IMG/VR virus record: IMGVR_UViG_3300025121_000035 | Location: 20,044-84,043 of that record | Length of the DNA: 64,000 bases | Source of the DNA: a virus | Reading direction: 5' to 3' (one strand) | In this document: piece after piece, positions 4,506 through 42,058 of the stretch | Layout of the letters: every line of letters starts with the position of its first letter | Numbering within the stretch: the stretch's first letter is position 1 | Notes under the pieces: model-generated | Told to the model about the DNA's origin: nothing | The model's input: only the letters and a program-made list of their open reading frames with translations | Database searches by the model: none | Position numbers and translations under genes: made by a program

Positions 4506-4967
4506 TTATCTAAATTTATTTATAATAGTTATTTTCTTTTTATCATAATTGATATCTATTTGCTTTAAATTATCTGGCTTAATAGTTGGGGGAGAACCTA
4601 TTCTATTAACATCTTTTTTAGTGTTTTTCTTTTTATTCATATTTAATATTTGATCTTTATTAGAAAAATCTTCTGGATCAGATTGATATAATAAACCATA
4701 ATTATCTAAATTCTTATAATAATATATTATATTACCTATTTTTATTGAAAATGGATTAATAATACCATTTAATGTCATTAATTCTTCAACTAAATCTGAA
4801 TTACCATGTAAATATCTACAAACTAAATCTATACGACCTTCGTATTCATCTGTAACAACAAAAATACCTATATCAGTTGTTATAAATCTATTTACTAATG
4901 TTCTTTTAAATAAATCATAAAACCCATTTTTTTCTATGTTTAATTTAATAAAGGAATATATATTCAT
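4506..4967 (-). CDS. Baseplate wedge protein, gp53/LysM-like
   Basis: GRIDLVCRYLHGNSD...LMTLNGIINPFSIKIG matches the R.DL....YG.......N.I.NPF pattern. Confidence 0.65.
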   Translation of the reverse strand: MNIYSFIKLNIEKNGFYDLFKRTLVNRFITTDIGIFVVTDEYEGRIDLVCRYLHGNSDLVEELMTLNGIINPFSIKIGNIIYYYKNLDNYGLLYQSDPEDFSNKDQILNMNKKKNTKKDVNRIGSPPTIKPDNLKQIDINYDKKKITIINKFR

Positions 4968-6436
4968 TATGAATTTTCTAATTTTTTATATACTCGTTTG
5001 TAATTTACTCCAAACATATCATATATTTCATTCTTACCCATACTTCTACCTTGTCTCATTTCTACTGTAACATCAATAAACTTAGGTATATCATTATACT
5101 GCATTTCACCATGATATTTAACAGATACATCACTAACATGAACATTATTCATTGAAAATAATGGAGCATATGGATTACCAATAGTTAAATGCCAAGGTGT
5201 AGATGCTTCTCCAGTTAACATTGCAATAGAACCTCTTAATGGCCAAACCCATCTTGCAACAGTAGATGCTAATATTGATTTTAAAATAGTATTATTAACT
5301 AAACTATTTAATATTGTACCTTGATCTGGTGGTGAAGGTTTTTTTGTTTCATTTGCTGCATCTCCTTCTTCAGTTGAAACATCTACTGAATCTTCATCTG
5401 AATCTGATATTAATTCTTTTATTTCACCTGCAATAGCACTTATAAATCCTTTAACTACATTTCTAATTAAATATACCCAAGCACTTATATTTGTAGGATC
5501 ATTATTAGCAGTTCTTAATTTTGCAATAAGATCAGAATCTGATTTTCCTATAAAATTAGTATCCGATGTACCCATTGTTAATAAATTATTTAAAATATCC
5601 ATAGTAGATACTGTCATATCAATATCACCAATATATTTTTGTTCATATACTGTTTCTAATTTAAATGTAAAATTTGAACTTAATCCAAAATCTTCAACTT
5701 CTCTAGTTATTGATTGTTTTAATACATTAGGATCACCAATAGGTATATTAGTTTTATTATAATCTGTTATACCTAATCTATTTAATACACCAAATACAAA
5801 ACCAATACCCCAACCAGGAATAGGTACTATTTGATCCATATGAATTCCAAAACTTTTAGAAATCATATCATTTAACATTAAATGTAACATTTTATCTGAA
5901 CCTTGATTAACCCATACTTCATTAAAATTAAAACTAAGAAAATCATTTTCGTCTTTAACCCAACCTATTACTGTTGATATTGGTTCAGCATTTAACAATT
6001 GTAAATCTTTAGGTACAACTACACCTTCTGCAAATCTTCTTAATATCATTAAACGATTAATAGGATATACACCAATATCTCTTAAATATGAAAAATCTGT
6101 ACTTTTTAATCTTAATGCAGGTGAATCATTATATATTTTATCTTTACCTGGATTACTATTACTTCCACTAAAATCATCTAATAATTGTAAATATGGATTT
6201 TTTTTAGTTGCTTTATATGCTTTATTTACATCAGATTGAATATAATTATCTTTAATACCACTTGAAGTTACTACATATTCGTTTAATTCAAACTCCTTTG
6301 TTTTTTTATTATATTCTCTTCGTTGTTCAACTATTTGGGCTCGATTAGAGTTAGAACTAGCTGTTTTAGTAGTTGTATTAACATTATTTTTAATTTTTAA
6401 ATTAGCTTTAAATAAAAAGCTCATTTCATCAAACAT
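4967..6436 (-). CDS. Putative tail tube initiator / baseplate protein
   Basis: Baseplate cluster context; C-terminal WHLTIGNP...V.VKY.G......DIP.FIDVTV. Confidence 0.45.
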   Translation of the reverse strand: MFDEMSFLFKANLKIKNNVNTTTKTASSNSNRAQIVEQRREYNKKTKEFELNEYVVTSSGIKDNYIQSDVNKAYKATKKNPYLQLLDDFSGSNSNPGKDKIYNDSPALRLKSTDFSYLRDIGVYPINRLMILRRFAEGVVVPKDLQLLNAEPISTVIGWVKDENDFLSFNFNEVWVNQGSDKMLHLMLNDMISKSFGIHMDQIVPIPGWGIGFVFGVLNRLGITDYNKTNIPIGDPNVLKQSITREVEDFGLSSNFTFKLETVYEQKYIGDIDMTVSTMDILNNLLTMGTSDTNFIGKSDSDLIAKLRTANNDPTNISAWVYLIRNVVKGFISAIAGEIKELISDSDEDSVDVSTEEGDAANETKKPSPPDQGTILNSLVNNTILKSILASTVARWVWPLRGSIAMLTGEASTPWHLTIGNPYAPLFSMNNVHVSDVSVKYHGEMQYNDIPKFIDVTVEMRQGRSMGKNEIYDMFGVNYKRVYKKLENS

Positions 6437-6903: not shown

Positions 6904-7136
6904 GCATTTATATTTTTTTTATTTATTACATTTTTAATATATATTGAATTATTTGAGTCGTATTGTAAAAAAAATATAAATCTTTGATTTTTAATATTTC
7001 ATTCCATATAATAGTAGATTATTATTTAGTTTGATGATGATTAATTTTTTATAATTTTTAAACTTATTTAAAAATTTAGCATAAAATTAATAATTGAAAA
7101 ATTTAATTATTTTTTATAAAAACAAATTAAATATGA

Positions 7137-8345
7137 ATGGCAAAAAAGAAATCAACATCATCATATTCAATATCTCAACTATCAAGCCTTATTGATAACT
7201 TAGGAGAAGAATCTAAAATCATGATTGAAAATGAAGAACATAATGGGACTATTGATACTAGTGTTTATATACTTAATGCATTACTTTCTAAAAGTATTTT
7301 TGGTGGAGTAGCAGATGATAGAATTACTATTTTCGCAGGTGATCCAAATACTGGTAAATCTTATATTATGTATAATATTGCCAGAAATGCACAAAAATCT
7401 GGATATTATATTATATTTATTGATACAGAACATTCAATAAATAAAAATACATTATCTGATTTTGGAATTAAAACTGATAAAGAAAGTCTTAAATTAATAA
7501 CATCTAACAAAGTAGAAGATTTAAAAATCTTTTTAACTAAATTTTTAGATGAATTAAAAACTCAAAAAGTTAATGGTATTGAAGTACCTAAAATTATGAT
7601 ACTATTAGATAGTATTGGTCAATTAGCATCTGAAAAAGAAAAACAAGATGCACTAGAAGGTAAAAATAAAGTTGATATGACTAGAGCTAAATCCATTAAA
7701 CAATTTTTTAGAATTATTAATTCTGATATGGGATATTTAGGAATTCCTTTGATTGCTTCTAATCACGTATATGAAGATACTAATTCTTTTTTCCCTACTA
7801 AAATTATGAGTGGTGGTAAAGGTGTTGAATATTCAGCATCAACTATTATATTTTTAAGTACCGCTAAATTAAAAACAGGTCGTGAAGATGATATGGATTT
7901 AAATTCAACTGGTTCAATAATTACAGCTCAAGCTAAGAAAAATAGAATGGCAAAACCTAAAAAAATTAAATTTGAAATTGATCATACTTATGGCACTAAT
8001 AGATATAAAGGATTAGAATATTTCTGTACTATCGAAAATTTTGATAAAGTTGGTATAGCAATTGGTAAAAAAGTTATAAAGGAAAACGGTGAAATTGGAA
8101 TTGAATCAAGTGGAAAAAAATGGTACGTTAAGCATCTTGATAAAACACTTTTTGAAAAACAATTATATAATAATAAAGTTTTTACACAAGAAGTACTAGA
8201 AGCATTAGATCCAATTATCTATAAATATTTTGATTATTCTTCATTCGAAGAAGAACAAAGTTATATAAATGATATAGATAATGTTGATGATAATATTAAT
8301 ATTGATCCTGATTTCGATGATATTGATAATGATGATTTGTTTTAA
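7137..8345 (+). CDS. uvsX: RecA/UvsX-like recombinase
   Basis: Walker A GDPNTGKS, IFIDTE, Walker B ILLDSIG, DMTRA, NHVY and SGGKG motifs. Confidence 0.9.
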   Translation: MAKKKSTSSYSISQLSSLIDNLGEESKIMIENEEHNGTIDTSVYILNALLSKSIFGGVADDRITIFAGDPNTGKSYIMYNIARNAQKSGYYIIFIDTEHSINKNTLSDFGIKTDKESLKLITSNKVEDLKIFLTKFLDELKTQKVNGIEVPKIMILLDSIGQLASEKEKQDALEGKNKVDMTRAKSIKQFFRIINSDMGYLGIPLIASNHVYEDTNSFFPTKIMSGGKGVEYSASTIIFLSTAKLKTGREDDMDLNSTGSIITAQAKKNRMAKPKKIKFEIDHTYGTNRYKGLEYFCTIENFDKVGIAIGKKVIKENGEIGIESSGKKWYVKHLDKTLFEKQLYNNKVFTQEVLEALDPIIYKYFDYSSFEEEQSYINDIDNVDDNINIDPDFDDIDNDDLF

Positions 8346-20698: not shown

Positions 20699-20816
20699 GA
20701 TAATCAATAGTTAAAGAAAACCATTAAATATTTAATTTAATGGACGATTTTTATCAAAACAGGCTTCAATTATTTAATATATAAAATAAAACAAAAAAAA
20801 TAATAAATTAGAAATT

Positions 20817-21002
20817 ATGGAAGAACGTATAACATTAGATCAACTTATTGAATTAGTCGAAGAAGTTAGAAAAGATTATGATAAGTTTTATGATAAAGGA
20901 GTTAAAGCTGCCGCTACTCGTCTTAGAAAAGGATTACAAGATATAATCAAAATATCGAAAGATATGAGAGTTCAAGCAATCGAACACAAAAAATCATTAT
21001 AA
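20817..21002 (+). CDS. Histone H1-like (Hc1 family) nucleoid protein
   Basis: D..KF..KG.KAAATR.RK.LQ.I......R pattern of the short Hc1-like proteins found in Bacteroidota. Confidence 0.75.
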   Translation: MEERITLDQLIELVEEVRKDYDKFYDKGVKAAATRLRKGLQDIIKISKDMRVQAIEHKKSL

Positions 21003-21005
21003 AAG

Positions 21006-21040
21006 AAAAAAAGGGATATATAATTTATATCCCTTTTTTT
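21006..21040. terminator. Bidirectional rho-independent terminator
   Basis: A7-GGGATATA...TATATCCC-T7 between convergent genes. Confidence 0.85.
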
Positions 21041-21041
21041 G

Positions 21042-21057
21042 TGTTCCACGTGGAACA
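21042..21057. promoter_or_regulatory. parS-like palindrome TGTTCCACGTGGAACA
   Basis: Perfect 16-bp palindrome matching the chromosomal parS consensus TGTTNCACGTGNAACA. Confidence 0.8.
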
Positions 21058-21088
21058 ATTATTTAATTTTTATCTTTTTTATATAAAT

Positions 21089-21135
21089 CGTCAAATTCAT
21101 CTATTAAACTAAAGATTTATCGATTTTCTTTGACG
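21089..21135 (-). mobile_element. Orphan IS200/IS605-type left-end hairpin
   Basis: CGTCAAAGAAAATCGATAAATCTTTAGTTTAATAGATGAATTTGACG on the minus strand closely resembles the left end at 40223-40268. Confidence 0.6.
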
Positions 21136-32123: not shown

Positions 32124-33465
32124 ATGAACTACAACTAAACTAAAGATTTAGTTGTTTCTTGGGCTGAACCTGTAACCAGTTTCATATCTCCACAAGCGTA
32201 TATTTCTGCTGTTCCAGCAGTATTATTTTTTACAAAACTAAACTTTTTAATATTTGTTGCTGCATTTTGATCCCTATTGTGTTTTGTATTACAATTAGGA
32301 CAAATCCATTCCCTATCAGATAATTTCAAATTTGATTTAATATACCCACAACAAGAACACATTTTAGAAGAAGGTTCAAATTGACCAATTCTAATGATAT
32401 TACAACCATACCATTCACTTTTGTAATCCAAATACAAATTGAAATTACTAATTGATATATCAGATAATGATTGTGATAATTTATGGTTTTTAATCATATT
32501 AGATGGTTTTAATGTTTCTAAACATATTGTATCATATGTGGTTACTAATTCTTTTGATACTTTATGTAAAAAATCATTCCTTTTATTTGAAACTTTTTCA
32601 TGAATAATAGATAATTTTTTTACATATTTTTTTCTATTATTTGATCCTTTTACTTTTTTTGAAACTTTCCTTTGAATCCTTTTTAATTTTTTTAATGACT
32701 TTTTAAGATTCTTTGGATTTTCAATTTCAGTTCCATTTGATAATACAGCAAATGTTTTAATTCCCAAATCAATTCCAACTGCTTTATCTTCACTAATTGG
32801 TTTCTTTTTTGGTAATTCACTTGGTATTTCTACTAAAATAGAAATGAAATACTTACCTGTTGATGTTCTTGTTATTGTTGATTTTTTAGTTATTCCTTCA
32901 AATATTCTATCAATTTTAATTTTAATTGATGATTTGAACTTCGGTATATCTAATTTTTCATTTTCAAAATCCACATAAGTATTTTGTGGTATTCCAAATG
33001 ATTGTTTATTATCTTTTTTTGATTTGAACTTTGGAAATCCACCTTGCTTTTTGAAAAACTTTGTATATGCGTTATCAAGATTTTCTAAACTATATTGTAA
33101 AGATTGGCTATTTACTTCTTTTAACCAAGATGTTTCTTCTTGTTTTTTAAGAATTGGTAAATCTTTTTGTATATCAAATCTTGATAATCCTACACCAGTT
33201 TCTTGATATGTTTTGTTTTTTTTGTTCAACGCATAATTGTATATCCATCTTGCACAACCAAAATGTTGATGTATCAATTCTTTTTGAATTGAATTAGGAT
33301 ATATCCTATATTTGTAAGTTTTCAAAATCATATCTATTATACTATATATTTTAGAATTAGTTTCATTTTTTTCTAAAATTATTTTCAACTTTAGAATAAT
33401 TATATATAATTATTATTACAATTCATCTACCTAAACTGAAGATTTAGGGGATTTCTTGTAAAAGA
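32124..33465 (-). mobile_element. IS200/IS605 family (IS1341-type, tnpB only) element
   Basis: Left-end hairpin CCTAAATCTTCAGTTTAGG downstream of TTAT; right-end hairpin CAACTAAATCTTTAGTTTAGTTG followed by TAGTTCAT; tnpB lies between them. Confidence 0.82.
32135..33331 (-). CDS. tnpB: RNA-guided endonuclease TnpB
   Basis: YKYRIYP HTH, GIDLGI (RuvC I), ICLETL (RuvC II), SSKMCSCCG...CPNC Zn finger, RDQNAATNI (RuvC III). ATG 33331 is the likely start. Confidence 0.93.
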   Translation of the reverse strand: MILKTYKYRIYPNSIQKELIHQHFGCARWIYNYALNKKNKTYQETGVGLSRFDIQKDLPILKKQEETSWLKEVNSQSLQYSLENLDNAYTKFFKKQGGFPKFKSKKDNKQSFGIPQNTYVDFENEKLDIPKFKSSIKIKIDRIFEGITKKSTITRTSTGKYFISILVEIPSELPKKKPISEDKAVGIDLGIKTFAVLSNGTEIENPKNLKKSLKKLKRIQRKVSKKVKGSNNRKKYVKKLSIIHEKVSNKRNDFLHKVSKELVTTYDTICLETLKPSNMIKNHKLSQSLSDISISNFNLYLDYKSEWYGCNIIRIGQFEPSSKMCSCCGYIKSNLKLSDREWICPNCNTKHNRDQNAATNIKKFSFVKNNTAGTAEIYACGDMKLVTGSAQETTKSLV

Positions 33466-33508
33466 ATAATTAAATTTTAATATATAGAAAAAAATATATA
33501 TATTATAT

Positions 33509-38731: not shown

Positions 38732-40827
38732 TCATAATTCTATTTGGCTTAAAACTTCTAAACATAATTCGTTAGGTACAATGGATCTTTGTTCAGCTCC
38801 TTTTAGTCCTTGTGTTCCTGTTTTACTTCCTCTTGGTGCAGCAATGTGACAAGTCATACCATTTTTACACATTGGTCTAGGTGTCCATAATTCATTATTA
38901 GTCCAGATATCTGTCGGTTTCATGCGATCATCCCCATACTGACAATATGTAACTGTATTTCTAATTGGTAAATCTATCATAATAGGGAATTTTCTTAACA
39001 TACCTCTAGGGTTTTCGATGTACCAATATTTAGGTTTAAAATAATTAATTAATTCTATTGTTTTTTCAACTAATTTATAACCAATTAAAGCTGTTTCAGA
39101 TTTAGGTTCTCTTTCTTTTGTCCAATGATGTGATACAGAAGCAATTGAGAAGGACGTACAGTTATGTACTATTAAATTTTTAACAGTATATGTATTGTCT
39201 TCTTCTACTTCTAAATTATATGTTTTTAATGATACATTTAATTTTTCTTTTTTATCAAATTGTAACCATATGTAATTATTATCAATATCATATTTTATAT
39301 TTTTACAATTTATACTAAATTTAATATTATAAAGTTTATTTGTTCTATCATCTATAATCAAAGTTGTTGGTATTTTATATACTTTATTTATACAATATTG
39401 AATACCGTATGCTAATTTTTCACTAGTTGTTGATAAATTATATTTTCCTTTTTTTATAGTATGACCATCAGAATCTATATAACCGTTTATAAATGAAATT
39501 AAATATTCATTTGGTAAATTGAATATATCAGATGTTAATTCTTTATTTGGTGATCCTATTCCAAATCGTTTAAAATAATGATATAATTCTTTATTATAAA
39601 AAATAAATTGGTTTACCGTTTTTTTAGTTTTAGATAAATTATATTTATTAAAAACTAATTTTATTTTATTTTCTAAATAATCTGTTTTTTTTTTATTACA
39701 ACATATATTAACTTCTTCACACCCATTATCTTTATGTATACTTATCCACCCATCACCAATAAATCTTCCTACAATATACCAAAAATTAATATCATTAATA
39801 GGTAGGGTATTAATTAATTTTTTAATATTATTTTGTTTTTGGTATTGGTTACTTATACCTTGTTCATAATAACAACCTTTGTATATTGGTAGTGATTGTT
39901 CTTTATTTAAAGGAATAGCAACGTATGGTGATTCTATAATTGCTTTACTTTTATTTTTACTTATATTTACTTCTATATCACCTACATTAACCCAATCTGG
40001 TTCTGTAAAATAATATTCATATTTTCTTAATTTATTATTCCATTTACGTTTTTTGTATTTAATATAATACGGGTGATTTCCAGTTACTATTGTGTTTTTA
40101 GTTTGTCTTGTATTAAAATTATAACAATCATTAGAATGATTTTCATATATTTTTGTTACTTTTCTAAATCTATTTTTATGTGTTAATACTTGATCACCAA
40201 CTACAATATTTTTTATATGTTCCGTCAAAGAAAACCATTAAATCTTCAGTTTAATGGATGAATTTGACTAAAATGGACTTTAAATATTTAATATATATAT
40301 ATAATAATTAAATAAAAGTTCTTTGAAATGATTTAATGGTTTTGATCTACAAACCTAGATCAAGTAAAATCATTGAGGTTCAAGTATGTAAATACTTGAT
40401 AGTTAAGTATCTATACGAAAACCAAGGTAGATGCAAAATATAAAAAATGTTTAAAAATATTTTTTAACTGTGGAGCGAGTGACCGAATTCGCAGTCTAAA
40501 CAAAAAAACGGTGAGGCGTCAACATTAGTTGAGTCTATGAAACGTTGAAACACATTAATATTTATTTAATGTGTAGTTCATTTCTTTATAACCATTATTT
40601 GTTAATACTAATTCATCTTCTCCAAAACAAGGCGGAGATGCCCATATAATATCTGGTTGCCAGGGAACTTTATTAACATCAAATTCTAATAAATCAACTG
40701 TATAATCAGTTTTAAATTTTTCTAAATAGTCTGATGAAAATACTTCATAACCAAGTTCTTTTGCAGCTTTCCCTATTGATTTAGTACCAGCAAATAATTC
40801 TAGTACTTTTATTTTATGAATTTCCAT
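38732..40827 (-). pseudogene. C5 cytosine DNA methyltransferase with a LAGLIDADG intein, interrupted by a 365-bp insertion (pseudogene or split gene)
   Basis: Motif I ELFAG, motif IV SPP|C and motif VI YIENP. The intein runs CFGEDE...HN|C (39161-40629) with GRFIGDG and GYIDSDG. Removing 40217-40581 restores the frame (NGYKE|IKNIVVGD). Confidence 0.85.
40217..40581 (+). mobile_element. Non-autonomous IS200/IS605-derived element (MITE/PATE-like) with an internal structured RNA
   Basis: Preceded by TTTAT. Left-end hairpin CCATTAAATCTTCAGTTTAATGG; right end CACATTAA..TTAATGTG-TAGTTCAT. No target duplication and no ORF. Confidence 0.8.
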
Positions 40828-41051: not shown

Positions 41052-41101
41052 ATTGTCCCTTAAAAGAAAACCGTTAAATTGTTAGTTTGTGTGTAGTTCA
41101 T
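41052..41101 (+). mobile_element. Fused left-end/right-end IS200/IS605 remnant of about 50 bp
   Basis: TTTAT|ATTGTCCCTTAAAAGAAAACCGTTAAAT...GTGTAGTTCAT. Confidence 0.5.
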
Positions 41102-41556: not shown

Positions 41557-41601
41557 TATATTAAAAATAAAAATGGTAAGACTAAATTATCTTACCGTTT
41601 G

Positions 41602-41977
41602 TGGAAAAGCAGGGAATCGAACCCTGGTGTTTACTAAATTAAAATTAATATTCTACATGCTTATAATATTTTTTAATAATTCGATACTTTACAAAATATT
41701 CAAACATACAAGTATAAAATAATTGTTACACTATAAAATATCGATTTCACAATCATTATCAATAAGTTTTTGGTTAATTTCTATTACACTGCTACAAGTT
41801 CACCTTCTTGTAAAACAGATTCGTTTCCAAATCCGACAGTCAATGCGTCACTAATCTTATTAGCCGCATTAAATAAATTCGCGTTTGCGTTTATTGTTTT
41901 GCCTTTTTTAAAGTGTTCTGACAAACACTACATGCTAATTAACCCCGTTTTAATAAGTCGATGCCATTTTCTTTCCC
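41602..41977 (-). ncRNA. ssrA: tmRNA (SsrA)
   Basis: Acceptor stem GGGAAAG/CUUUUCC-A with a G3-U wobble, 5' AUCGAC, T-arm CAGGGUUCGAUUCCCUG, 3' UAAGCAUGUAG, and a tag ORF at 41888-41784 after AUAAAC. Confidence 0.9.
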
Positions 41978-42058
41978 ATAAAATTAAAGAACTTTTCACT
42001 ATATATTATATATAGTAAATTAAAAAAGTTTATTTTTTCTAAATACAAATATAATAAA

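Follow-up and report, generated by a model that had tools for sequence, protein, structure and literature searches.

How a mobile element that encodes no protein and sits inside a phage gene could be kept and spread is the question raised by a 365-nt segment at 40217-40581 (+ strand; 2-nt boundary ambiguity, AT) of the window, by which we mean the whole 64,000-nt stretch of IMG/VR virus record IMGVR_UViG_3300025121_000035 that was analysed. A first-pass annotation had described this segment as an IS605-type element built as a cassette for an omega-RNA-like transcript, and what it had stated of the promoter, leader, hairpins, right end, flank and TTTAT was all confirmed at the given positions. 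Each structural part of its interpretation passed the test applied to it, and the interpretation is largely supported. Our reading is that the segment is a non-autonomous protein-less IS200/IS605-family element (palindrome-associated transposable element, PATE) whose sole cargo is probably a guide-RNA cassette, with TnpB acting in trans; we assign this reading a probability of roughly 0.7.

The identity of the element follows from its ends. Its ORFs reach at most 35 and 30 aa, and it holds no protein gene. Its 5′ side abuts a TTTAT transposon-adjacent motif (TAM; 40212-40216, +), and a left-end (LE) subterminal hairpin, GTCAAAGAAAACCATTAAA/TTTAATGGATGAATTTGAC, lies at 40224-40268 (+; inverted repeat I19, 79% complementary). 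At the opposite side, a right-end (RE) subterminal hairpin, ACACATTAA/TTAATGTGT (40550-40574), and the terminal AGTTCAT together occupy 40550-40581 (+); the right end reads GTAGTTCAT, and the GC-richer right part stops with TAGTTCAT at 40581. LE and RE are not inverted copies of one another, and there are no terminal inverted repeats. The RE hairpin covaries among copies (ACACACAAA/TTTGTGTGT, CCACTAAA/TTTAGTGG) with GTAGTTCAT kept, and both hairpins are near-identical in two relatives (L018 and L049). The tnpB element of the window and many copies in other viral contigs share both the LE hairpin and the GTAGTTCAT end with this element, as expected from the IS605-type ends that had been claimed. 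TTTAT lies 5′ of LE, at most 22 nt from the LE motif, in 20 of the 21 elements that have a recognisable LE and bear the 5′ module described below; it precedes LE at 10 of 10 loci of a separate set with the left end in view, and it is also found 5′ of the tnpB element of locus L024, whose LE and RE are related to those described here. Further LE-like copies are present in the window at 20710-20783 (+), 21090-21135 (−), 33420-33457 (−) and 41063 (+), and in a 50-nt relic of the same family at 41052-41101 (+; repeats D1 and D2) the LE start and hairpin arm are fused to the RE arm and GTAGTTCAT, again after TTTAT. The segment is therefore a non-autonomous IS200/IS605-family element, inserted 3′ of TTTAT without target duplication.

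Database searches with the element itself gave little. A blastn search of 40100-40700 against the phage collection returned no match, and within 40217-40581 the only hit among 4227 Rfam families, to sucC, was at chance level (17.4 bits, where the gathering score is 50; E = 2.5). The Y1 (HUH) transposase TnpA (PF01797) was absent from the six records searched, five of them incomplete, which comprised the window's own record and five others; one of these (G006) was reached via L068, a locus without the 5′ module. With records this incomplete, a TnpA may yet be supplied in trans. CheckV puts the completeness of the window's record at 12%.

The insertion point is the N-terminal splicing region of an intein nested in a phage DNA-methyltransferase gene. 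The upstream part of the interrupted gene (40582-40827, −) encodes the methyltransferase N-half (67 aa) and the first 16 intein residues, and the downstream part (38732-40216, −) encodes the rest of the LAGLIDADG intein and the C-terminal half of the methyltransferase. In PHROG 757, 'DNA methyltransferase', the upstream part matches profile positions 12-83 and the downstream part 82-218, so that the two halves are contiguous and abut at position 82/83. The downstream part also matches Pfam LAGLIDADG_3 (4.4e-8) and positions 33-155 of the Intein_splicing profile, and with the 16 N-side residues counted, intein residue 31 falls at about position 33 of that profile. When the element was removed in silico, ...CFGEDELVLTNNGYKE joined IKNIVVGDQVLTH... 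in frame and the intein reading frame was restored exactly, with no duplicated bases at the junction apart from the 2-nt ambiguity. The site thus forms a three-level nest of selfish elements, with a PATE in an intein in a methyltransferase gene. The element carries a cost, since it lies antisense to the methyltransferase-intein gene, which it seems to disrupt. Searches for the empty site with the intein-methyltransferase protein reached nothing but the C-extein at 6 of 6 confirmed loci in viral contigs. At 30 confirmed loci in metagenome contigs the matches started at query residue 304 or beyond, within the C-extein or the terminal portion of the intein, and the insertion site was reached by none.

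Inside the element, a promoter-like motif, TTTAATATATA (40287-40297) followed by TATAAT, occupies 40287-40305 (+). The window holds 14 copies of TTTAATATATA where 3.06 would be expected, and 0 of 100 shuffles reached 14. For 12 of the 14, an ATG ORF of 50 aa or longer lies on the same strand no more than 70 nt downstream, which holds for 750 of 5000 random positions (15%). The motif is thus the phage's own, over-represented and located upstream of genes, and it is kept in related elements; its placement suggests a role as promoter, as had been claimed. A sigma-70 consensus scan of the window yielded 20 promoter-like sites against 20.8 in shuffles and, because it stayed at shuffle level, was not used as evidence. 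The same scan returned one weak terminator-like site at 40652-40664 (+).

Downstream of the putative promoter lies a leader motif, GTTCTTTGA (40318-40326, +), inside AAAAGTTCTTTGAAA, which starts at 40314. The motif is kept as GTTCWTTGA, without variation, in all 8 aligned elements; because the 21 sequences of the 5′-module alignment were selected with the leader motif, they add nothing to this invariance. With one mismatch allowed, AAGTTCTTTRA occurs 12 times in the window against 11.98 expected, which is chance, and the motif therefore takes its weight from its conservation in relatives and not from the window count. The layout recurs at a tmRNA on the minus strand (41599-41977), as the first-pass annotation had noted: the tmRNA is recognised by Rfam (60.4 bits; gathering score, 47), although ARAGORN reported no tmRNA and no tRNA in the window, and AAAAGTTCTTTAA lies just 5′ of it at 41983-41995 (−). 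The leader motif also precedes the tmRNA of a second phage (G003), and in both phages 4 to 6 nt separate it from the 5′ end of the mature tmRNA. The motif shares 8 of 9 bases with GCTCTTTAA of the E. coli rrsH leader, which we take to be the sequence known as boxA, and the host's own consensus may differ. BoxA protects the untranslated rRNA transcript, and in nut sites boxB follows boxA. The likeness to boxA of rRNA operons and lambda nut sites lies in the occurrence of GTTCTTTAA/GTTCTTTGA close to where two untranslated RNAs begin and, for the boxA-boxB arrangement, in the hairpin that follows the leader motif in the element; the difference is that the resemblance here is one of a short motif alone, known from sequence. 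A literature search for boxA together with this motif returned unrelated papers or nothing.

The leader is followed by a conserved stem-loop (TGGTT, hairpin, GTAAAATCAT; 40335-40374, +) that includes the hairpin TTGATCTA/TAGATCAA at 40343-40364, and then by the hairpins TCAAGTAT/ATACTTGA (40381-40400) and GTATCTA/TAGATGC (40407-40434, +). In the latter the stem varies and the loop, CGAAAACCAAG, is constant: GTATCTA/TAGATGC in the window corresponds to ACATTTAA/TTAAGTGT in L013, with U-G wobbles on the + strand. Promoter-like motif, leader and stem-loop constitute what we call the 5′ module. It was found in 26 distinct stretches, and the right end lies within 340 nt in 21 of them; the element lengths measured are 263-441 nt. 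These 26 were kept from 70 pattern matches among all collected loci on two conditions: the gap had to contain GGTT, and a TA-rich promoter-like motif had to lie upstream. One motif search had given 63 loci, many of which were fortuitous matches within coding regions of unrelated phages. Copies occupy many different sites, and their flanks differ.

The covariation of the stems, on which the first-pass annotation had made its proposal depend, is strong. In the 5′ module, 9 of 15 pairs are compensatory in 21 distinct sequences, and 98.1% of cells are paired as compared with 80.8% in shuffles. In the 15 scaffold cores compared (see below), compensatory changes affect 12 of 24 pairs (94.7% of cells paired, 78.5% in shuffles). 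The covariation score was matched by 0 of 500 shuffles in either case, 21 of 43 pairs were compensatory in full RNAs (n = 7), and pairing fell to 30-50% in slid controls. Because G-U and U-G pairs of the 5′ module are invariant in 21 of 21 sequences and because the predicted fold of 40314-40581 is more stable on the + strand (−67.2 kcal/mol, z = −5.55) than on the opposite strand (−47.1, z = −3.0), the structured strand is the + strand.

The right 125 nt of the element (40457-40581, +) show homology, at the level of both sequence and structure, with the RNA scaffold found at tnpB 3′ ends, which bears out the omega-RNA-like character that had been suggested. The order of scaffold core blocks, CGGTGAGGCGT, hairpin, GTCTATGAAAC, hairpin, end, recurs as the 3′ end of the tnpB (383 aa) of L024 and L027; the core blocks are shared exactly with these loci, and the overall identity of the scaffold to that of L024, a different and GC-richer viral contig and the source of the best-matching tnpB, is 68% over 130 nt. 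A covariance model built from the cores (R1) scored 123 bits on the element and 37.4 bits (E ~1e-7) on the 3′ end of the window's tnpB (32124-32230). Both matches end exactly at the right end, as do those in the other tnpB-linked copies.

The window's tnpB (32135-33388) is carried by an IS with the same end type (32124-33469, −; left boundary approximate) that ends with TTGTAGTTCAT and lies 7 kb from the element, making it a possible partner in trans. Its product matches PF01385 (5.9e-32), PF07282 (1.1e-21) and the ISDra2 TnpB (8h1j; E = 1.1e-77), and GIDLG, LETL and RDQNAA align with the D/E/D motifs of 9yyg, the best-matching solved TnpB-like chain. The homology of the element to this resident scaffold is weaker than that to L024: the resident scaffold is without the central hairpin, reaches 37 instead of 123 bits, and shows 66% identity over 130 nt, which is no better than between scaffold types. 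Because of this poor match, cross-use of the resident TnpB with the element RNA is uncertain.

TnpB uses the flank 3′ of the element as guide, as stated by Meers et al. (10.1101/2023.03.14.532601). By this known mechanism and by geometry, the predicted guide is TTCTTTATAACCATTATTTG (40582-40601, +), which together with TTTAT reconstitutes the empty site. That it would be antisense to the methyltransferase mRNA, as the first-pass annotation had said, holds by geometry alone, and the segment covered is the intein part of the gene. The proposed sequence of events is as follows. An RNA of about 270-290 nt would start near 40310-40316 and run through the right end into the flank, where TTCTTTATAACCATT... 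would serve as guide once a TnpB supplied in trans has bound the scaffold. The complex would cut phage genome copies with an uninterrupted site, that is, TTTAT plus a match to the guide, as may arise after excision or be present in a co-infecting relative. Repair by recombination would then copy the element back, so that it could be kept and spread without encoding a protein, and movement to new sites would require a Y1 TnpA from elsewhere. In the weakest step of this scheme, the leader motif may protect the untranslated transcript in the way that boxA does for rRNA.

The RNA could also be real and have nothing to do with TnpB, acting as a phage small or antisense RNA in silencing of the methyltransferase-intein mRNA or in transcription, with the IS ends serving mobility only and the scaffold being an inherited leftover. 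The conservation of the 5′ module on its own across scaffold types and the antisense orientation of the transcript to its host gene are in line with this, and so is a 147-kb record (G003; 80% complete) in which four scaffold matches were found and tnpB was not, the empty protein search there being of little weight. Nevertheless, the scaffold is the most conserved block of the element, with invariant runs and compensatory pairs, and its boundary always coincides with the right end, the geometry required of a guide RNA. Because copies reside at many sites with different flanks, they have no common antisense target. We consider this explanation unlikely.

That the element is inert, a decaying remnant of a tnpB element shortened by deletion, with any transcript mere noise, is a distinctly poor prospect. 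Truncated or minimal relics do exist (41052-41101; L028, 122 nt; L116), and the sequencing runs that contain the stretch are DNA only; yet in 26 distinct copies the promoter motif and the leader are retained, as are stems whose pairing is maintained by compensatory changes. Moreover, the module recurs with several scaffold types. By eye, about four such types carry it, and a tnpB-linked counterpart exists for each. Pairwise identities for types W and 51 (68-69% within a type, 57-70% between them) give no clean separation, and these two types therefore rest on shared motif blocks as judged by eye. Neither the maintenance of the module nor its recurrence across scaffolds is expected of neutral decay.

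It is very improbable that the hairpins are single-stranded DNA signals for a transposase alone, with no functional RNA. Transposases of the IS200/IS605 family do recognise DNA hairpins close to the two ends (10.1101/2023.03.14.532601), and the LE and RE hairpins of the element are alike, but interior stems distant from the ends covary too, a gene-type promoter motif lies upstream, and the scaffold shares homology with guide scaffolds linked to tnpB. Finally, a group I intron or IStron remnant spliced from the methyltransferase mRNA, a reading invited by the precise interruption of the coding frame and by the existence of PATEs with IStron ends (10.1101/2023.11.20.567912), was rejected as scarcely credible because the structured strand is antisense to the gene, no Rfam intron family matched either strand up to E = 10, and the minus-strand ends have, by inspection, no frame-compatible U...G splice pair.

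A PATE with a guide-RNA cassette has known counterparts. The scaffold of the ISDra2 TnpB and omega RNA complex (PDB 8h1j, 8exa) likewise ends at the right end, the window's TnpB is clearly related to that of ISDra2, and the TAM is of the same form, TTTAT here and TTGAT in ISDra2. By contrast, the ISDra2 scaffold overlaps the tnpB 3′ end and is made from the tnpB locus, whereas the element described here is without tnpB and has a separate promoter-like motif and leader instead. Stand-alone omega RNA loci were reportedly described by Altae-Tran et al. in 2021; a literature search for stand-alone omega RNAs in K. racemifer returned only commentary without such a statement. IStrons, in which a group I intron is combined with an IS605/IS607 tnpB, resemble the element in being IS605-type, in lying inside genes, in having a structured RNA and a guide RNA share one element, and in having PATE forms. 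TTGAT is also the TAM of C. difficile IStrons (10.1101/2023.11.20.567912). The element differs from IStrons in that it has no intron signature and is antisense to the interrupted gene, so that splicing cannot rescue that gene.

The closest comparison is with PATEs that, according to Meers et al. (10.1101/2023.03.14.532601), 'often encode omega RNAs', on which TnpB from other IS elements would act in trans. They share with the present element the lack of an ORF, the LE and RE hairpins, the insertion after a TAM and a right-end scaffold that needs TnpB in trans. The differences are that the element is located in phage genomes, carries a phage promoter motif, leader and stem-loop as a module, and that this module recurs on about four scaffold types (by eye). 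PATEs encoding omega RNAs are thus already known from that 2023 preprint, and what is new is the phage-adapted, swappable promoter and leader module. No such 5′ module is described in the literature searched, the scope of which ended short of the extended data of Meers et al. and Zedaveinyte et al., which may list omega RNAs of PATEs and their promoters.

More tentatively, and with the odds in our judgement somewhat against it, these elements might constitute a family of 'guide-only' selfish elements in which a portable module of phage promoter, boxA-like leader and stem-loop has been attached repeatedly to different TnpB scaffolds. Each copy would express its own guide during infection and home into uninterrupted rival alleles with a borrowed TnpB, whether encoded by the phage itself, by a co-infecting phage or by the host. 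If so, nuclease and guides would be separate parasites, with dispersed, promoter-driven single guides located apart from the nuclease gene, which would resemble a step toward stand-alone guide loci and would bear on how guide loci become detached from nuclease genes. One nuclease gene would thereby give phages a drive, similar to that of introns or homing elements, acting at many sites. If the RNA is made and used, TnpB guide RNAs would be independent, self-expressed mobile units in phage genomes. The 5′ module would then represent a novel RNA element that acts in expressing or maturing the guide; swapped as it is among scaffold types, it is a candidate expression or stabilisation signal for guide RNAs and might suit compact TnpB tools.

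The sequencing runs that contain the stretch (15 listed) are all DNA runs from groundwater or soil metagenomes. In Logan contigs from four DNA runs, the contigs break at the element and the precise excision joint was not seen. A weak joint connects 39838 to 40604 with 37 other letters between (runs X6 and X8, side 23). In run X1, the depth of the bin that contains LE was about 10 times that of its flanks, which fits a multi-copy repeat.

The element at 40217-40581 (+) is a precise IS605-type insertion whose right end holds a TnpB-type scaffold; the same strand carries a promoter-like motif and a structured leader that is conserved. The outer parts of the gene that it interrupts match adjoining stretches of a single phage DNA-methyltransferase family (PHROG 757, profile positions 12-83 and 82-218), and the inner part matches the intein profile and a LAGLIDADG domain. 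As judged from the sequence, this gene therefore encodes a methyltransferase interrupted at its PPC motif by an intein, and the 365-nt insertion follows the 16th residue of the intein. The minus-strand ORF that starts at 40827 reads MEIHK...IIWASPPCFGEDELVLTNNGYKE, continues for 8 codons inside the element and then stops, and the ORF at 38732-40228 (498 aa) covers positions 33-155 of the intein splicing profile, its later part, besides the LAGLIDADG domain. With exactly 40217-40581 taken out, ...NNGYKE runs on in frame into IKNIVVGDQ..., and the offset in the intein profile agrees with the residue count across the junction. The structured strand of the element is antisense to the methyltransferase-intein gene.

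The first-pass annotation had described an IS605-type element, which is borne out by a left-end hairpin common to the element and the tnpB element of the window, by the TTTAT target and by the precise insertion. Inspection of the sequence placed the named motifs where they had been reported, with TTTAATATATA at 40287, AAAAGTTCTTTGAAA at 40314, three hairpins, the element end TAGTTCAT at 40581, the flank TTCTTTATAACCATTATTTG and TTTAT right before 40217. The tnpB gene lies 7 kb from the element (32135-33388, −; PF01385, 5.9e-32; PF07282, 1.1e-21); its product matches ISDra2 TnpB with an E-value of 1.1e-77, and its motifs GIDLG, LETL and RDQNAA have aligned counterparts in the solved TnpB-like chain that matches best. 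The left-end hairpin of the tnpB element resembles the hairpin at 40224-40268, and its terminus is TTGTAGTTCAT. Pattern scans of IMG/VR recovered the element core in 19 loci; TTTAT lies directly 5′ of the left end in all 10 loci that have this end in view, and the flanks 3′ of GTAGTTCAT differ in every copy.

The proposed likeness of the right part to an omega RNA was supported by two matched loci, L024 and L027, which share with the element the blocks CGGTGAGGCGT, a hairpin, GTCTATGAAAC, another hairpin and the end. There, the blocks make up the final codons of a 383-aa tnpB and the sequence downstream of it; this tnpB element is also located 3′ of TTTAT, and its TnpB is 45% identical to that of the window. 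The suggested covariation check, run on an alignment of 15 cores, showed that 12 of 24 pairs are compensatory and that 94.7% of cells are paired, compared to 78.5% in shuffles; the covariation score was reached by 0 of 500 shuffles, and slid controls drop to 28-46% paired. A covariance model of these 15 cores, R1, matches 40457-40581 at 123 bits and another copy, truncated by a contig start (G000:1-102), at 105 bits. On the 3′ end of the window's own tnpB it scores 37.4 bits (E ~1e-7); there, the match stops exactly at the right end and the central hairpin is missing. In L025 and L026 (~7880-8003, −), the scaffold core is found directly 3′ of an unrelated ORF (tail ...CRGERNIHKGWEII) and its own 5′ part is replaced; to judge from this layout, the copy is truncated or recombined.

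In the left part, the promoter motif TTTAATATATA is one of 14 copies in the window (3.06 expected), 12 of which are followed by a same-strand ORF within 70 nt, compared to 15% of random positions. The two copies without such an ORF, that of the element and one at 6933-6943 (+), also have none of at least 50 aa in the 120 nt downstream; the second may mark another non-coding RNA. Downstream of the promoter motif lies GTTCTTTGA, which does not vary among the 8 aligned elements. Because its spacing from the promoter motif is variable (16-24 nt), GTTCTTTGA more likely belongs to the transcript than to the promoter. Next follows a stem-loop (40335-40374), compared across 21 distinct sequences: compensatory changes occur in 9 of its 15 pairs, the paired share of cells is 98.1% (shuffles, 80.8%), and a G-U as well as a U-G pair never varies; the 15-core alignment of the scaffold contains a further invariant G-U pair. 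These wobble pairs, together with fold energies of −67.2 kcal/mol for the + strand RNA versus −47.1 kcal/mol for the opposite strand, point to a predicted RNA that would be read from the + strand.

The GTTCTTTGA motif is also present 4-6 nt 5′ of the mature tmRNA start, both here and in another phage record (G003), and it agrees in 8 of 9 bases with GCTCTTTAA of the E. coli rrsH leader, which we take to be boxA; a literature search for GCTCTTTAA as boxA returned no support. The tmRNA reported near 41983 (−) corresponds to an Rfam match at 41599-41977 (−; 60.4 bits), with AAAAGTTCTTTAA immediately 5′ of it. ARAGORN did not call a tmRNA at this position, an ordinary tag frame is not readable by eye, and GCGGCUAAUAAG, the part that aligns with the end of the E. 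coli tag, lacks an in-frame stop in the expected frame. In a Candidatus Saccharibacteria MAG contig (L126, CAYXST010000005.1, ~4860-5260), a ~190-nt protein-less element with the same scaffold adjoins a tRNA gene, and GCTCTTTGAAAAAAC directly 3′ of the tRNA resembles boxA, in what may be a host lineage.

A scan for the 5′ module, consisting of promoter motif, leader motif and stem-loop, yielded 63 loci; many were chance hits in unrelated coding sequence, and filtering left 26 distinct stretches. A right end follows within 340 nt in 21 of these, three are cut by a contig end and two show neither; the left-end motif is present in 21, and 20 of those 21 have TTTAT. The measured lengths of 263-441 nt (n = 16) leave no room for tnpB. 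Judged by eye, about four types of scaffold carry the module, and each type also has a tnpB-linked copy. Given with the tnpB-linked copy first and the protein-less one second, these are the window type (L024; window element with module), type 46 (L046; L053 with module), type 51 (L051; L054 with module) and type 50 (L050; L067 with and L047 without module). Pairwise identity clearly backs types 46 (79%) and 50 (78%) and weakly backs the window type and type 51 (68-69%, versus 57-70% between types). Shorter forms without the module are L016 and L011 (~190 nt) and L028 (122 nt), and MAG contigs of Candidatus Saccharibacteria, Patescibacteria and Actinomycetota contain ~190-nt protein-less elements with the same scaffold. 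Within single phage records, scaffold matches outnumber tnpB genes. G003 (147 kb, 80% complete, the record of L021) contains four scaffold matches and a tmRNA, and Pfam and protein searches of this 80% complete record found no tnpB, leaving guide-type elements with no nuclease gene in view. Two 51205-nt contigs, L125 (JBBAEW010000007.1, 'Saccharofermentanales' MAG) and the viral L029 (IMGVR_UViG_3300028603_000074), carry the same element (23% GC); L125 probably stems from a phage and was binned with a bacterial MAG.

We propose as the most likely mechanism that an RNA would be transcribed from the phage-type promoter and run on into the flank, and that a TnpB encoded elsewhere would use it. 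The complex would cleave sites of TTTAT plus flank from which the element is absent, and subsequent recombination would restore or spread the element, a cut-and-recombine mechanism described for tnpB elements in the preprint by Meers et al. (10.1101/2023.03.14.532601). Against this mechanism count that no empty site was seen in run contigs or intein-homologue scans, that searches of six records, the window's own among them, turned up no Y1 TnpA, that the TnpB partner is uncertain and that there is an apparent cost to the host gene. The kind of element is already known because protein-less elements (PATEs) often encode omega RNAs, for which TnpB from other elements must act in trans (Discussion of Meers et al., 10.1101/2023.03.14.532601), a PATE with IStron ends appears in a figure legend of Zedaveinyte et al. 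(10.1101/2023.11.20.567912), and TnpB is, as stated in PMC12607003, often encoded by phages. In the literature, supplements aside, we found neither a promoter-and-leader module common to several scaffold types nor guide-carrying PATEs as a phage-borne family. A dedicated module of this kind across scaffold types and a phage-borne family of such elements are apparently new.

The window, which spans positions 20044-84043 of an IMG/VR virus record of 84 kb (completeness 12%, CheckV), has a GC content of ~19-28%. Public runs containing the element stretch are groundwater and soil metagenomes, DNA only. Many element copies are located at contig ends, and in run X1 the left-end bin is ~10x deeper than the flanks, both of which fit a multi-copy repeat. 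One contig each in runs X6 and X8 skips 765 nt within 39838-40604 (part of the intein and the whole element) and reads 37 other letters in their place; with a flank of just 23 letters, this may tentatively be a variant allele.

Further left ends lie within the window. A copy of left end plus promoter at 20710-20783, 81% identical to element bases 8-81, lies upstream of a 61-aa ORF (20818-21003) that it would drive as a putative promoter. It faces an inverted left-end copy after TTTAT at 21090-21135 (−), so that 20710-21135 holds two left ends head to head and no right end. A 50-nt relic at 41052-41101 (+), also after TTTAT, fuses the left-end start and 5′ hairpin arm to the right-end 3′ arm and GTAGTTCAT, and looks like a deletion between the similar hairpin loops of the two ends.
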